Shown here: positions 20,943-26,354 of the stretch, one piece after another
How the letters are laid out: each line of letters begins with the position of its first letter
How positions within the stretch are numbered: position 1 is the first letter of the stretch
The notes under the pieces: model-generated
Database searches by the model: none
What the model saw: only the letters and a program-made list of their open reading frames with translations
What the model was told of the DNA's origin: nothing
Source: Nitrospina watsonii
GTDB lineage: Bacteria > Nitrospinota > Nitrospinia > Nitrospinales > Nitrospinaceae
DNA: 64,000 nucleotides
NCBI RefSeq assembly: GCF_946900835.1
Contig: NZ_OX336137.1
Coordinates: 1,228,213 to 1,292,212, forward strand
Direction: 5' to 3'
Translations under genes and position numbers: made by a program

Positions 20943-21374
20943 TCAACACCGGGCCACGAAGCCGGAGTTCGGGCTGGAGTGGGTACTGGATTCGGCTTCT
21001 TCCGCGGCGTTGAAGATCTGGTCCCAGGCTTCGCGCAGCGGTGTCATCACACGCAGGACCGCCTGCAGGGAGGCCTTGTCGTTTTTGATGTTGGCCAGGG
21101 TCAACTGGCGCAGCACAAACTGGTACAGCCGTTCCAGATTGCGGCACACCTCACCGCCCTTGTCGGTGTCGAGCGCCACCATCAACTCGTTGACGATGTC
21201 CCGCGACTTCTGGATGTACACACTCTTGTGAGCGACATCGTTCTGGTCCAGAGAATCCATCGCCATGGTGACAAACCGGATGGCTCCATCGTACATCATG
21301 AGAATCAGCTTGCCCTGGTTGGAGGTCGAGACCTCATTGATCCGGTATTCCTTGTGTCCCTGTGTCTGTCCCAT
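20943..21374 (-). CDS. fliS: Flagellar export chaperone FliS
   Basis: 143 aa with LILMMYDGAIRFV, a typical FliS helix. Confidence 0.85.
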   Translation of the reverse strand: MGQTQGHKEYRINEVSTSNQGKLILMMYDGAIRFVTMAMDSLDQNDVAHKSVYIQKSRDIVNELMVALDTDKGGEVCRNLERLYQFVLRQLTLANIKNDKASLQAVLRVMTPLREAWDQIFNAAEEAESSTHSSPNSGFVARC

Positions 21375-21419
21375 ATGTGCGCTCTCCTGTGAGTCTTCCG
21401 TGTGGCCGTGTTCGCAGAT

Positions 21420-23033
21420 TTATTTCTTGAGCAGTCCTGACAAATTGGATAAGGACGACTCCACCGCTTTTCGTTGCGCGTCGAGTTGACCCAGAATCAC
21501 TTCCAATTGGATAAACTGATTACGAATCCGGTCCTCAAACAATTTCAGCCGGTCATCCAGCCGGAGAATGACTTCATTGAGGTCCTCGATTTGTTCCGTG
21601 GTGGTGTTGATGTCACCCATCAACGGGCCGTTCTGCGTGGTGTCCGTGTTGAATGTCAGCACCCGGTCCAGTTTCTCCGCCACGCCGATGGAAACAGCGA
21701 TCGTCCCCTTGCTGCCGTTGCTGGCCAGTTCCGAGGAATCGATGCTGAACACCAGACCCTCGGCGCTGGTTCCCGCCGCGCCGATGAAGGTGCTGCCCGG
21801 ACCCTGCACGGCCGCAGTGAAACTGGCTTCGCCCACCTTGCGCAATTCCGGAACGCCGCCGGTGACCTGAAGCTCAAACGTGCCTTGCTCGGTTTTGCTG
21901 TTGGCGTTCAGGAAATCGACATTGGCGTCGGTGGCGGAACCGGAGGTGATGAACAGGTTGGCCACGCCTTCCGGATCGCTCACCAAGGCCGAGCTCAACT
22001 TGGCGCTGTCCAGCACCAACGTGCCGTCGTCCTGGGTGCTGATGCCGATTTGCGACAGGAAGCTGAACGAACTGCTCAACCCGGTCACCTGGCTCGAAAC
22101 CAGGTTGCTGAGGGTTTCTTCCAGGTTGCGCACCGAGAACTGGCCGAACAGCGGGCCGGACTCCAGCGTGTCGCTGTCGAAAAACGCCTGCTCGTCAATG
22201 AAAGTTTGCACCTCGTTGAACTGCTTGACGAAATCCTCGATCTTGGTGCGGATGTTGTCGGTGTCGATGCTGATGTTGATGGTGCCGGAACCCAGCGCGT
22301 CCAGGCTCAGCGTCGTGCCGGTGATGACGTCGTTGACGGTATTGGTGGAACGGGTGTAGCTGATGCTGTCGAGAGTGAACGTCGAATCCTGCGCCGTTTG
22401 AATGCTGGTGAAAAACTGGTCCGTTCCGCCTTCAAAATAACGGGCCGTCACATCCTGGCTGGAGCCGGTCTGGTTGCCCTCGATCACAATGCTGATGGGA
22501 GTGGCCGAACCGTCATCCACCACCTTGGCGGTGACATCCGCCGCTGAGGCGTTGATCAGGTCCACAATCTCCTGCACGGTTTCGTCGCCGCCGACGGTGA
22601 TATCGGTTACGGTGCTTCCGACTGTGATCCGGAAAAATTCGCCGTCCAGGCCCGGGTTGTAAGTATCCGTCGCTGCACTGAACCGGTCGTCGGACTGCAC
22701 AATCCCCGTCTGCGCCAGCTGGGTGACGTTGATGTCGAACGCGCCGGTGGGCGAGTTCACGCTGGTGTTGACGCCGACTTTGGCGGTGGAGGTGTCGCCC
22801 AGGAAATCGCCAACCTTGTTCAGCATGCGGTCGCGAATGTCCATGGTCCGCACCAGGCTCTTGAACGATCCAGCCAGCGTGCGCAACTCCTTGAACAGGT
22901 CGAGCTTGTCGATCTGCAACTCGCGTTCGGACACCTTCGCTTCCAGAGGACGCTGCTGCAGAGCGATCAGTTGCTCGACGACTTCCGAGGTGTTGAAGCC
23001 GGATTGAAGGCCAAATATGGATGTGATTGCCAT
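21420..23033 (-). CDS. fliD: Flagellar filament cap protein FliD
   Basis: Start at MAITSIFGL. Conserved FliD N-terminal and C-terminal coiled-coil segments (DRLKLFEDRIRNQFIQLE...). The ORF extends upstream to 23336. Confidence 0.85.
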   Translation of the reverse strand: MAITSIFGLQSGFNTSEVVEQLIALQQRPLEAKVSERELQIDKLDLFKELRTLAGSFKSLVRTMDIRDRMLNKVGDFLGDTSTAKVGVNTSVNSPTGAFDINVTQLAQTGIVQSDDRFSAATDTYNPGLDGEFFRITVGSTVTDITVGGDETVQEIVDLINASAADVTAKVVDDGSATPISIVIEGNQTGSSQDVTARYFEGGTDQFFTSIQTAQDSTFTLDSISYTRSTNTVNDVITGTTLSLDALGSGTINISIDTDNIRTKIEDFVKQFNEVQTFIDEQAFFDSDTLESGPLFGQFSVRNLEETLSNLVSSQVTGLSSSFSFLSQIGISTQDDGTLVLDSAKLSSALVSDPEGVANLFITSGSATDANVDFLNANSKTEQGTFELQVTGGVPELRKVGEASFTAAVQGPGSTFIGAAGTSAEGLVFSIDSSELASNGSKGTIAVSIGVAEKLDRVLTFNTDTTQNGPLMGDINTTTEQIEDLNEVILRLDDRLKLFEDRIRNQFIQLEVILGQLDAQRKAVESSLSNLSGLLKK

Positions 23034-23180
23034 GATGATGTTTCCCAATTGGACCGTTGCGTTGCCGCTGACCGGTCCCCCCTTCAGAGAAGGGGGAGCC
23101 CATCGGCTTGCGCCCATGGACCATCGTTCGCTCACAGAGCATCCGCCCGTTTGCCGCGGGCCACGCCCGCTCCTGATGAT

Positions 23181-23210
23181 CTTATCGGCCTTAAAATATG
23201 CGGACTTTAG
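23181..23210 (-). promoter_or_regulatory. Sigma-28 (FliA)-type promoter for fliD-fliS
   Basis: Minus strand reads TAAAG-N16-GCCGATAA (consensus TAAA-N15-GCCGATAA), about 150 bp upstream of the fliD start. Confidence 0.45.
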
Positions 23211-23337
23211 GAAAAAACAGGGCGGCCCCTGCCCTCTGCCTGAAGAACTTGCGTGGCAGGGGGCAGGGCATTGAAATTGCTGGGTTTGGGTATCGGGGCT
23301 TGAATCGGCTGCCGGGAAAGTGATATAAGGCCCCACT

Positions 23338-24027
23338 ATGCCCGATCAACTCGACCTGTTTTCCCAGCCGCCGGTGGAAGAGCCGGTAAAGCCCCAAAAA
23401 CCAAAGGATTTGGGGCCGCGTATCCTGTATTTCGACCTGGAGACGCAGAAGAGCGCCGATGAAGTGGGCGGCTGGGGCAATATCAAGGACATGCTGATGG
23501 CCGTCGGCGTCGTCTGGGACAGCCACGACCCGAAACACCACGTTTATTACGGCGAGCCGGACAAGAAGGACGGGCCGGGCTACACCGATCTCATCGACCA
23601 CCTCAAGTCCGCCGATCTGGTGGTCGGTTTCAACGTCATCGGCTTCGACTACACCGTCATCCAGGGCGCCGCCAGCCAGCGGCACATCGACTTGCTCGAC
23701 ATCCCCACCTTCGACATGCTCGTCGATTTCACCCAGAAAAAGAACCACCGCATCAAGCTCGACAACCTCGCCGGCTGCACGCTGGGCACGAAGAAGTCCG
23801 CCGACGGATTGATTTCACTGCAATGGTGGAAGGAATACCTGGGCGGGGACAAGATAAAGCTCGACCAGATCGTCGAGTACTGCAAGCAGGACGTCAACGT
23901 GACGCGTGACCTGTTCTTATTCGGCAAGGACCACGGCTACGTCGAGTACGACGGCCGCAGCGGCCAGCGCCTGCGCCTGAACGTGGACTGGACCGTCGAA
24001 ACCATCCTCAAATCCCCACATCGGTAA
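23338..24027 (+). CDS. PolB-type DEDDy 3'-5' exonuclease (COG3298-like)
   Basis: 229 aa. ExoI YFDLET, ExoII FNVIGFD and ExoIII YCKQDVNVTRD (YxxxD) motifs. Confidence 0.7.
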   Translation: MPDQLDLFSQPPVEEPVKPQKPKDLGPRILYFDLETQKSADEVGGWGNIKDMLMAVGVVWDSHDPKHHVYYGEPDKKDGPGYTDLIDHLKSADLVVGFNVIGFDYTVIQGAASQRHIDLLDIPTFDMLVDFTQKKNHRIKLDNLAGCTLGTKKSADGLISLQWWKEYLGGDKIKLDQIVEYCKQDVNVTRDLFLFGKDHGYVEYDGRSGQRLRLNVDWTVETILKSPHR

Positions 24028-24030
24028 ATA
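23977..24030. repeat. 54-bp perfect direct repeat, copy 1 (3' end of the exonuclease gene)
   Basis: Identical to 24917-24970. Verified base by base. Confidence 0.9.
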
Positions 24031-24094
24031 CGCGCACATCATTGCGGGAAGAAGAAGGGCTTATGGTCCGTGAGGGAAGAATCATAAGGTCCCT

Positions 24095-24250
24095 TTCCCC
24101 CCTCCCCTGTACCAAGGGGAGGGTCGGGGTGGGGTTTTGGAGTGCAACCCGTGTTCACGGGTTGCGACCACCAATACCTCCCCTCAATCCCCTCCTTGGA
24201 AAGGAGGGGAGATGATGGGGTCTCGCCGGAAGACGGTAGGCCGTCCTTGA
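24095..24250. repeat. Cluster of GC-rich REP-like hairpins
   Basis: Three hairpins here: CCCTCCCCT-GTACCA-AGGGGAGGG, GCAACCCGTG-TT-CACGGGTTGC and CCCCTCCTT-GGA-AAGGAGGGG. Related units occur at 26421-26530 and 53717-53789. Confidence 0.6.
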
Positions 24251-24373
24251 ATTTTGATTTCCCCGCGGCTTGAGTCTAAAATAGCGTGGAGTGCATTGAG
24301 AGCCGTCCGCCCGGCAAAGCCGGTTGAGGACATAATTAATGAGACCCTTGCGTAAGTGGGATTAAACCAAAAA

Positions 24374-24548
24374 CATAGATTCTTCGCTGACGCTCAGAAT
24401 GACAATTCAGGCTCCAGCATGTCATTCTGAGAAGCCGGGCCACGCCCGGAGGAGACAAGTGGCTTTTGGATTGGCTGACAACCCATCATTCGCCCTAATA
24501 GCAGAACCCTATTCCTCTCCCTGTAAGGGAGGCGACGAAGAATCTATG
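24374..24548. mobile_element. MITE-like element or structured RNA with 13-bp terminal inverted repeats
   Basis: CATAGATTCTTCG at 24374-24386 and CGAAGAATCTATG at 24536-24548. Internal hairpins include a perfect 12-bp stem (24393-24431), CCGGGC-CAC-GCCCGG, and CTCCC-TGTAA-GGGAG. Confidence 0.35.
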
Positions 24549-24604
24549 GGTTCACTCTTTTTAAGGCTTATGCGAAGCTCTCATTATTGATTGGAGATCG
24601 ATTC

Positions 24605-24835
24605 ATGAAACGCAATGTGATTCAGATCATTCTTTATCCGGGAGATCAAAGCGGCTATGTCGCCGAATGCGTCGGCCTGCCGGTCATCACCCAGGGGAGC
24701 ACGATCGACGAGACGGTGAAGAACATGCAGGAGGCGCTGGCTTTGCACCTCGACGGGGAGAACCTGGAAGAGTTGGAACTGTCACCCAATGCCCCCATCA
24801 TTGTGAGCATGGAGCTGCAACCGATTCATGGTTAA
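24605..24835 (+). CDS. hicB: HicB-family antitoxin (UPF0150)
   Basis: YPGDQSGYVAECVGLPVITQGSTIDETVKNMQEALALHLDGE, typical HicB RNase H-like fold signature. The ORF begins at 24587. Confidence 0.7.
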   Translation: MKRNVIQIILYPGDQSGYVAECVGLPVITQGSTIDETVKNMQEALALHLDGENLEELELSPNAPIIVSMELQPIHG

Positions 24836-24920
24836 ACTGCGCCGCCTGTCCGGAGGGCAAGTGGTAGCGATCCTGGAGAACTTCGGGTTTTCTCCAATCG
24901 GGCAAAAGGGAAGCATCTGA
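24828..24920 (+). pseudogene. hicA: HicA toxin, truncated after 30 codons
   Basis: Translates to MVKLRRLSGGQVVAILENFGFSPIGQKGSI*, which stops just before the conserved GSH catalytic region. The TGA stop lies inside the 54-bp repeat copy 2. Confidence 0.55.
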
Positions 24921-24970
24921 ACGTGGACTGGACCGTCGAAACCATCCTCAAATCCCCACATCGGTAAATA
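24917..24970. repeat. 54-bp perfect direct repeat, copy 2
   Basis: Identical to 23977-24030. Confidence 0.9.
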
Positions 24971-24978
24971 AAAGTTTG

Positions 24979-25362
24979 CTAGTACATATGTGTTCTGCCT
25001 AGTAGATATATCTTGGTTTGTTTGGCGGGCATTTTGTTGTATTCACGACATTCTGATTGTCCGCCTTCAAAAATATATCCCTGCTTTCCAAATCGGTTCA
25101 AAATCTGAATTTCAGAAACTCCTTTTAGACCCTTAGGCTTTTTTATTATTCCGGTACAAATTCCACCAATCATGGCTTGATATATTGTTTCTGTGACTCG
25201 CCGCTCTTTAGAGATGATTTCAACAATTCCTTGTTTGTGATTTACGGATTTTGGTTGCCACAGTTTCAGACTATTTAAAATCTGCGTTGAAACGGAGTCG
25301 GCATATACAGGAGTTATAAAAAAGAGAGATATTAATAAGATTTTCGGAAGAGTTCTTATCAA
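24979..25362 (-). CDS. Small secreted hypothetical protein (low-GC; TTG start overlapping the MoxR stop)
   Basis: 127 aa. Signal peptide ILLISLFFITPVYA-DS. GAGGTG RBS inside the MoxR 3' end. Local GC is about 38%. Confidence 0.45.
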   Translation of the reverse strand: MIRTLPKILLISLFFITPVYADSVSTQILNSLKLWQPKSVNHKQGIVEIISKERRVTETIYQAMIGGICTGIIKKPKGLKGVSEIQILNRFGKQGYIFEGGQSECREYNKMPAKQTKIYLLGRTHMY

Positions 25363-26354
25363 ACCTTCACCTCAGCGAGTAGCTTGTCGATGATGTCCTG
25401 GGTTTTGATGTTTTCGGCTTCGGCTTTGAAGTTGAGCAGGATGCGGTGTTCCAGCACCTGCTGGCTGACGCTTTTGATGTCGTCGATGGTGACGGCGACG
25501 CGGTTGTCCATCAGCGCCCGCGCCTTGGCGGCCAGCACCAGGTACTGACTGGCGCGCGGCCCCGCCCCCCAACTGACCCACTCGGTGACGAATCCCGGCG
25601 TCGTGCCGTTCCCCGGTCGTGACGCCCTAACCAAATCCACCGCATACCGCGCGACGTGATCCGACACCGGCACCTTCGGCACCAGCTTCTGCAAGGCCAG
25701 AATGCGGTCGGCCTCCATCACCACCTCCAGTTCCGGCTTCACGCCCGACGTGGTGGACAGCGCGATCTGCACCTCCTGCTCCTTGGTCGGGTAATCGACG
25801 TTGATGATGAACATGAAGCGGTCGAGCTGCGCCTCGGGCAGGGGATAGGTGCCCTCGTGTTCGATGGGGTTCTGCGTGGCGAACACGAGGAACGGCGGCT
25901 CGAGGTGATACGTGTTCGAGCCCACCGTCACCTGGTGTTCCTGCATGGCCTGCAACAGCGCCGCCTGCGTTTTCGGCGGGGTGCGGTTGATCTCGTCGGC
26001 CAAAATGATGTTGGCGAAGATGGGGCCGCGGATGAAGCGGAACTCGCGTTTGTTCGTCGCCTGGTCCTCGTACAGGATCTCGGTGCCGGTGATGTCCGAC
26101 GGCATGAGGTCGGGCGTGAACTGGATGCGGCTGAACTTGAGGTTGAGGACTTTCGCCAGCGAGCTGACGAGCAGCGTCTTGGCCAGCCCCGGCACGCCGA
26201 CGAACAGGCAGTGCCCGCGCGAGAACAGGGCGACCAGGAGGTCTTCGATGACGGCGTCCTGGCCGATGATGACCTTGCGGATTTCTTTCAGGACGTTGTT
26301 TTTGGCTTCCAGCAGCTCGCGGGCGAGATCGAGATCGGGCGTCGTTTGGTCCAT
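25359..26354 (-). CDS. MoxR-family AAA+ ATPase
   Basis: 331 aa, Walker A GVPGLAKT, Walker B ILADEINR, typical MoxR size. Confidence 0.9.
   Translation of the reverse strand: MDQTTPDLDLARELLEAKNNVLKEIRKVIIGQDAVIEDLLVALFSRGHCLFVGVPGLAKTLLVSSLAKVLNLKFSRIQFTPDLMPSDITGTEILYEDQATNKREFRFIRGPIFANIILADEINRTPPKTQAALLQAMQEHQVTVGSNTYHLEPPFLVFATQNPIEHEGTYPLPEAQLDRFMFIINVDYPTKEQEVQIALSTTSGVKPELEVVMEADRILALQKLVPKVPVSDHVARYAVDLVRASRPGNGTTPGFVTEWVSWGAGPRASQYLVLAAKARALMDNRVAVTIDDIKSVSQQVLEHRILLNFKAEAENIKTQDIIDKLLAEVKV

Follow-up and report, generated by a model that had tools for sequence, protein, structure and literature searches.

The hicB locus of Nitrospina watsonii very probably represents an eroded small type II hicBA module, whose toxin gene acquired its present end through one illegitimate-recombination or template-switch event. 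It is an ordinary and well-documented kind of toxin-antitoxin decay that leaves an orphan antitoxin, in which the clean 54-nt duplication alone is unusual. The features of the locus are listed in Table 1, numbered along the window, by which we mean the whole 64-kb stretch of N. watsonii DNA that was analysed. The two copies of the direct repeat, 100% identical and spaced 940 nt apart, enclose 561 nt of non-coding structured DNA, an intact hicB and a short hicA ORF that overlaps it. A perfect repeat of 54 nt is beyond chance for 64 kb, and for the insert region this pair was the sole repeat found within the window.

Table 1. Features of the hicB locus of N. watsonii and of its borders, in window positions
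Feature	Position	Strand	Description
Gene X	23338..24027	+	Intact; 229-aa RNase H-superfamily protein (3'-5' exonuclease-like); PF13482 RNase_H_2, E 3.4e-14
Direct repeat copy 1	23977..24030	+	Native 3' end of gene X (last 51 nt), stop codon, ATA
Module A	24031..24591		Non-coding filler; mostly structured palindromes (24080-24225, 24328-24596); absent from sister species
hicB	24605..24835	+	Intact 76-codon ORF; predicted small antitoxin without DNA-binding domain
hicA remnant	24828..24920	+	29 HicA codons, then Ile and TGA; ORF of 30 codons
Direct repeat copy 2	24917..24970	+	Non-functional duplicate of the 3' end of gene X, 54 nt
AT-rich ORF	24979..25362	-	127 aa; GC 36%, GC3 32% (genome 57% GC); not part of the hicBA module
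moxR	25359..26354	-	Core AAA_3 ATPase; PF07726, E 1.3e-62; right border of the variable spacer

The hicB gene and the hicA fragment

An earlier note, made from the letters of this DNA, had described hicB as intact, and the uninterrupted reading frame bears this out. The HicB protein is 100% identical to the NCBI entry 'type II toxin-antitoxin system HicB family antitoxin [Nitrospina watsonii]'; exact-protein look-ups of HicB and of the gene X product returned no record. All the residues that are invariant across 31 relatives are kept in the window protein. On Nitrospinota-type metagenome contigs, relatives sharing 78 to 91% identity with it are immediately followed by the gene for an 80-aa PF07927 protein, and in four of them a full-length 80-aa HicA gene overlaps hicB by 8 nt, as in the window (window, ATGGTTAA; relatives, ATGCCTAA).

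HicB was modeled with AlphaFold (pLDDT 83) as having the element order beta-beta-beta-alpha-beta (E6-12, E18-22, E28-31, H34-49, E65-69). This predicted structure corresponds to a partial RNase H fold with no C-terminal HTH or RHH, and the gene falls within the range of 63-103 codons of such antitoxins. The top Foldseek matches in the PDB were 6g1n/6g1c (HicB), 3k6q, 2yzt and 4p7d, with a probability of 0.66-1.0 and E values of only 0.03-0.7, the domain being small; the best folds were those of Burkholderia pseudomallei HicB, the SWOL_0700 antitoxin, TTHA1756 and HicB3. When the family profile was compared with the PDB, it retrieved TTHA1756 (1.7e-5) and the N-terminal domains of HicB proteins (0.003-0.007). 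The gathering score of PF15919 (HicB_lk_antitox) was not reached by the window HicB (16.4 bits vs a cut-off of 27), and 25 of the 31 family members give sub-threshold matches only; no NCBIfam model covers the HicB or the HicA proteins of this kind.

In Class 2 hicBA modules (Gerdes 2024, mBio, PMC10865869), hicB comes first and overlaps hicA, HicB has 63-103 codons and no DNA-binding domain, and HicA has 60-85 aa. Such modules are very common, and none has yet been tested experimentally (PMC10865869). The window shares with them the gene order, the 8-nt overlap and a 76-aa HicB with the predicted partial RNase H fold, and the intact relatives of its module carry an 80-aa PF07927 HicA. Unlike them, it retains 29 codons of the toxin and is no longer a toxin-antitoxin pair.

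The ORF that overlaps hicB encodes MVKLRRLSGGQVVAILENFGFSPIGQKGSI followed by a stop. Its TGA (24918-24920) corresponds to bases 2-4 of copy 2 and thus lies inside the repeat, as had been noticed earlier. The same note regarded the toxin as truncated, and this is corroborated by the full-length homologs: the remnant aligns with residues 1-29 of the 80-aa HicA from the four relatives in which the gene overlaps hicB by 8 nt (63-79% identity, tblastn E values down to 7.5e-11), and hicA residues 30-80 are absent in every frame and elsewhere in the 64-kb window, by both tblastn and blastn. Against PF07927 (HicA_toxin) the remnant covers profile positions 3-21 of 58 (E 0.003), with a score of 18.1 bits that is below the cut-off of 27, as expected for 19 residues; the full-length relatives reach 62-65 bits over positions 1-57. 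The nucleotide similarity to the hicA genes of the relatives vanishes right after GGAAGCAT, at the repeat boundary, and the homology ends 1-3 nt from the left edge of copy 2.

The cut had been placed just before the conserved GSH region. The catalytic His is indeed lost, but Gly28 and Ser29 are kept, the His being replaced by an Ile that is followed by the stop (GQKGSI-stop in the window vs GQ(K/R)GSH in the relatives). The KGSH motif of S. pneumoniae HicA and that of this hicA family align, and His36 of the S. pneumoniae protein is needed for RNase activity (PMC6159526). Lacking the catalytic His and over half of its double-stranded-RNA-binding fold, the predicted product cannot be an RNase toxin. 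The ORF has the adjacency to hicB and the overlap expected of hicA but not the catalytic His; judged by its sequence, it is a fragment of a HicA gene and not a HicA.

Nor is a HicA of about 30 aa the native form. A reconstructed full-length HicA query found 306 relatives, the best 120 of which carry PF07927 and are nearly all 79-82 aa long. As had been proposed, hicB is an orphan at this locus; among the best 120 of these 306 protein matches, no full-length HicA of N. watsonii occurs. Correcting the frame does not restore a longer toxin either: the result is a 46-aa fusion to the C-terminal end of the gene X product, and its match to the HicA profile breaks off at position 26 of 58 (PF07927, 23.8 bits, cut-off 27).

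The GC3 of hicB is 0.71, compared with 0.47-0.67 in the relatives and 0.85-0.89 in the core genes of the host. Because this value lies between those of the relatives and of the core genes, we infer that hicB may have resided for long in GC-rich genomes; being well above that of the relatives, it also points to a GC-similar donor rather than to a fresh import. A promoter and terminator scan gave nothing better than shuffled sequence.

The gene X-moxR spacer

The juxtaposition of gene X and the convergent moxR is conserved across Nitrospinaceae, and their spacer measures 11-85 bp in 21 of 27 loci of this family. In Nitrospina sp. 32_T5, the closest available species, the site is empty, with about 20 bp from gene X to moxR and both flanks collinear with the window. 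The gene X product is 90% identical to its orthologue in this species over residues 1-229, and that of moxR is 96% identical. The N. watsonii spacer holds 1,328 extra bases (24031-25358), namely the filler, hicB with the hicA remnant, copy 2 and the AT-rich gene. Unrelated cargo occupies this spacer in other genomes, which marks it as a small insertion hot spot, used recurrently, between core genes. The cargo consists of a HigB/HigA-like toxin-antitoxin pair with a secreted protein at one locus (L047:4711-6397), an amidase-like gene at a second (L006:6657-7578) and umuD/umuC with an SRAP-like gene at a third (L016:6642-11381). Insertion spots between core genes are a typical place for chromosomal toxin-antitoxin modules (Belot et al. 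2026, PMC13617665).

The filler, module A, contains nested inverted repeats, and its RNA folds have z values of -5.0 and -4.1 relative to shuffled sequences. The first value belongs to three G/C-rich hairpins clustered at 24080-24225 and the second to a 260-nt nested palindrome at 24328-24596, with inverted-repeat pairs of 25 nt, 13 nt and 12 nt, whose right arm stops 2 nt before the ribosome-binding site of hicB. Neither of these structured elements matches Rfam or recurs elsewhere in the window or in 170 loci; REP- or MITE-like elements are one possibility, a regulatory leader of hicB another. Rfam and tRNA scans of 23800-25500 returned only noise (microRNA models on a hairpin), with no tRNA that could serve as an att site.

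On the other side of copy 2, GC content falls from 24971 onward. The AT-rich ORF is a separate acquisition in the gene X-moxR spacer. It has no Pfam or NCBIfam match and is absent from 80 of 80 gene X loci. Its N-terminus carries a hydrophobic, signal-peptide-like segment, and its TTG start overlaps the stop codon of moxR (TTGA), as if the two genes were translationally coupled. The homologs form a small family of about 129 aa sharing 47-57% identity, and are found near an IS transposase, AbiGi and a DNA methyltransferase.

Upstream of gene X, a minus-strand ORF (21420-23336) encodes a 638-aa protein that we presume to be FliD-like, that is, a flagellar cap protein. Positions 21317-23035 of the window match two stretches of the 32_T5 locus (L005:1-1732 and L005:4219-5789) with about 70% nucleotide identity, which suggests that the sister species has a putative duplicated paralogue of this ORF.

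Origin of the truncation

The left edge of copy 2 is the joint at which hicA is truncated; at the right edge of this copy the AT-rich DNA begins. Because the hicA homology stops at this left edge and the site is empty in the sister species, the joint that ends hicA is also the one that starts the duplicate. To this extent, the earlier proposal that the event that created the repeat also disrupted the toxin holds; 'disrupted' may be the wrong word, hicA having perhaps been captured incomplete. The C-terminus LNVDWTVETILKSPHR, encoded by copy 1, is conserved in the 32_T5 orthologue of gene X. A 'TILKS' resemblance had suggested that this C-terminus derived from hicA, an idea that was rejected because it is conserved in orthologues with no hicBA nearby. 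As the copies are identical at 54 of 54 positions, the duplication is young by comparison with the 11% by which gene X differs from that of 32_T5.

The single-event origin that we favour would have proceeded as follows. An 886-nt stretch comprising the filler, hicB and 89 nt of hicA would have entered the end of gene X by copying or recombination, and rejoining 54 nt upstream of the exit point would have produced both the 54-nt duplication and the end point inside hicA. The mechanism may have been a replication template switch, or a recombination with homology at one end and an illegitimate joint at the other, and the donor would be a GC-similar genome, whether in the same cell, on a sister chromosome or in a close relative. 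Of the module, no more than hicB and the initial 89 nt of hicA would ever have been copied in, and an intact hicA may never have been present here. No donor or progenitor of the 886-nt insert was found, and nothing in 170 loci matches 24031-24591 by blastn. The closest hicB relative, about 91-92% identical at the protein level (P0030), is at the end of a contig and has no downstream sequence.

Some details of the joint bear on the mechanism. Between the beginning of the repeat and the hicA sequence that would normally follow the Ser codon, 8 of 12 bases agree, an imperfect microhomology that is a weak statistic chosen post hoc. Because one nucleotide is missing relative to the family (GGAAG-CAT), 3 nt before the joint, this does not appear to be a clean microhomology junction. 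Against a template switch, the right edge of copy 2 coincides with the start of the AT-rich gene, for which a coincidence or a fragile spot would be needed. The 12-16 nt that follow each repeat copy have only short matches to the 32_T5 spacer.

The locus could instead be the remnant of a site-specific integrative element that targeted the 3' end of gene X, with the 54-nt repeats as attL and attR, the integrase and the 3' part of hicA having been lost by a deletion into attR, and the unit being mobilisable in cis by another element. The foreign DNA does lie between perfect repeats, and gene X has its 3' end restored by copy 1, the classic layout of insertion at a gene end; this origin would also account for repeat identity ending exactly where the flanks differ, at 24030/24031 and 24970/24971. 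We nonetheless consider it unlikely. No integrase or recombinase ORF is present in the 886 nt, where hicB and the hicA remnant are the only ORFs for which homologs were found (24031-24916), and the flanks are core genes syntenic with 32_T5. No terminal inverted repeats and no recurrent use of an att site were found; five other filled spacers (L006, L010, L026, L046 and L047) have no duplicate of the end of gene X, and the filled spacer of L016 has only a 27-nt, 89% match to it. Past the AT-rich gene the repeat does not occur a third time, and at least two events would be required, since the integration would have to be followed by a deletion with an end point inside att.

The CIMEs of Streptococcus are integrase-less elements mobilised in cis and flanked by att repeats. 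The N. watsonii locus resembles them in layout only, with recombinase-less foreign DNA enclosed by direct repeats that contain the target gene's 3' end; it differs in that no integrase partner, reuse of the site in relatives or evidence of excision was found.

Rather less probable is a decay in situ over several steps, in which a complete resident hicBA, a separate duplication of the gene X end and a later deletion of hicA codons 30-80 would have followed one another. Deletions of part or all of hicA that spare hicB do occur in the family (L085, L170, L098/L099 and L143). However, three independent events would be needed, a second gene X end downstream of hicA would be left unexplained, and the 54/54 identity argues for a young duplicate.

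That the lesion is an artefact of assembly or sequencing, a mis-join or indel error hiding an intact hicA, is highly improbable. The sequence is one base short 3 nt ahead of the joint, relative to the family, and assemblies based on Nanopore reads can carry indels; against this, the assembly is a circular Unicycler hybrid of MiSeq 2x300 (54x coverage) and Nanopore reads (PMC10112255), in which 300-nt reads span the 54-nt repeat, and the 150 nt for residues 30-80 are absent, so that correcting the frame cannot restore HicA. The source of the assembly is a cultured strain, for which a purity check is not stated in the paper (PMC10112255). Insertion of a transposon, IS or MITE was rejected, since no inverted repeat pairs the ends at 24031 and 24916, the duplication measures 54 nt rather than 2-15 bp and there is no transposase ORF.

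The HicB protein would now be idle, or would only buffer related HicA toxins that arrive on mobile DNA. The 940-nt unit would be open to loss by homologous recombination between the two 54-nt repeats.

Loss of hicA in the family

To place the locus in its family, the gene downstream of hicB was scored in 80 metagenome loci obtained by HicB alignment and in six earlier loci, of which 81 were evaluable. An intact hicA of 80-82 aa follows in 47 of these 81 (with RESH in place of RGSH in one case), an in-frame nonsense codon interrupts it in 11, a truncation, internal deletion or frameshift affects 20, and in 3 no trace of it is left. Dereplication at 97% nucleotide identity gave 64 clusters. In 38 of them only intact copies occur, showing that hicB regularly lies just upstream of a bona fide hicA; 24 contain only defective alleles, and 2 contain both kinds. 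Recognisable hicA remnants follow hicB in most of the other clusters. Thus hicA is defective, through nonsense mutation, deletion or full loss, in 26 of 64 dereplicated hicB loci, a count from which an asymmetry between toxin and antitoxin decay cannot be read, the loci having been picked by an intact hicB. Toxin-only decay is common in this small hicBA family. The dN/dS of hicB in the family is 0.05-0.19, also between loci that each lack hicA.

Recoding or readthrough of the in-frame stops was considered and rejected: TAA, TGA and TAG are mixed and occur at codons one mutation away from a stop, which identifies them as plain nonsense mutations. Two loci (L086:4224-4466 and L088:3224-3466) have hicA genes about 78% identical to each other and the same CAA-to-TAA nonsense mutation at codon 42, with the 38 codons beyond the stop in frame and well conserved. 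Either this is a parallel recent mutation at a rare one-step codon, or it is an older shared lesion with an unexplained conservation downstream.

Different states of hicA are found at one and the same site, and among nearly identical sequences. Uncultured Nitrospinota-like bacteria show three allelic states at a hemA-hemC locus: L001 and L087 have an intact hicBA, an internal deletion cuts hicA at codon 23 in L085, and a clean deletion of hicA in L170 leaves only the 8 nt that overlap hicB; hicB is intact in all four. Among contigs at least 97% identical over hicB and the downstream region, L137 and L140 differ from L143 by a deletion that makes hicA defective, and intact and defective alleles differ by a CGA-to-TGA change between L152 and L151, L154 and L156. 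As intact and defective hicA thus coexist among contigs at least 97% identical, the toxin was lost recently among close sequences.

Comparable erosion has been described in other bacteria, and decay that begins with the toxin is the norm in published work (PMC13617665). In Photorhabdus, toxin-only decay affects 185 copies vs 8 for antitoxin-only decay (Belot et al. 2026, MBE, PMC13617665); in Klebsiella, orphan antitoxins are abundant, and an anti-addiction role has been suggested for them (Horesh et al. 2020, NAR, PMC7192599); in E. coli, ccdO157 is reported to have decayed (Mine et al. 2009, cited in PMC13617665). As in these eroded chromosomal systems, the N. watsonii toxin is inactivated and the antitoxin ORF is kept, at a variable spot between core genes with no mobile-element genes nearby, and the lesions are truncations or deletions rather than point mutations. 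Unlike them, the joint bears a 54-nt duplicate of the end of the neighbouring gene, which records the origin of the lesion, and the host is a marine nitrite oxidiser, not an enterobacterium.

For annotation, the locus consists of hicB and a hicA pseudogene fragment, and no active HicA can be credited to N. watsonii here. The survey carries the observation that the toxin decays first, made in Photorhabdus, E. coli and Klebsiella, to Class 2 hicBA of environmental bacteria, as a hint only, since the loci were selected by hicB. With its readable joint, the locus offers an example of how an antitoxin-only locus may arise in one step.

Given that hicA has been lost again and again in the family, in Nitrospinota and in other phyla, whereas strong purifying selection acts on hicB, one may speculate, with little confidence, that the solitary HicB is kept by selection as an immunity against incoming HicA from plasmids, phages or defence islands, or that the 940-nt unit is still a mobile cassette. 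If so, a solitary HicB would have an anti-addiction or anti-defence role, and the 940-nt unit would be an antitoxin-only cassette that excises and reinserts.
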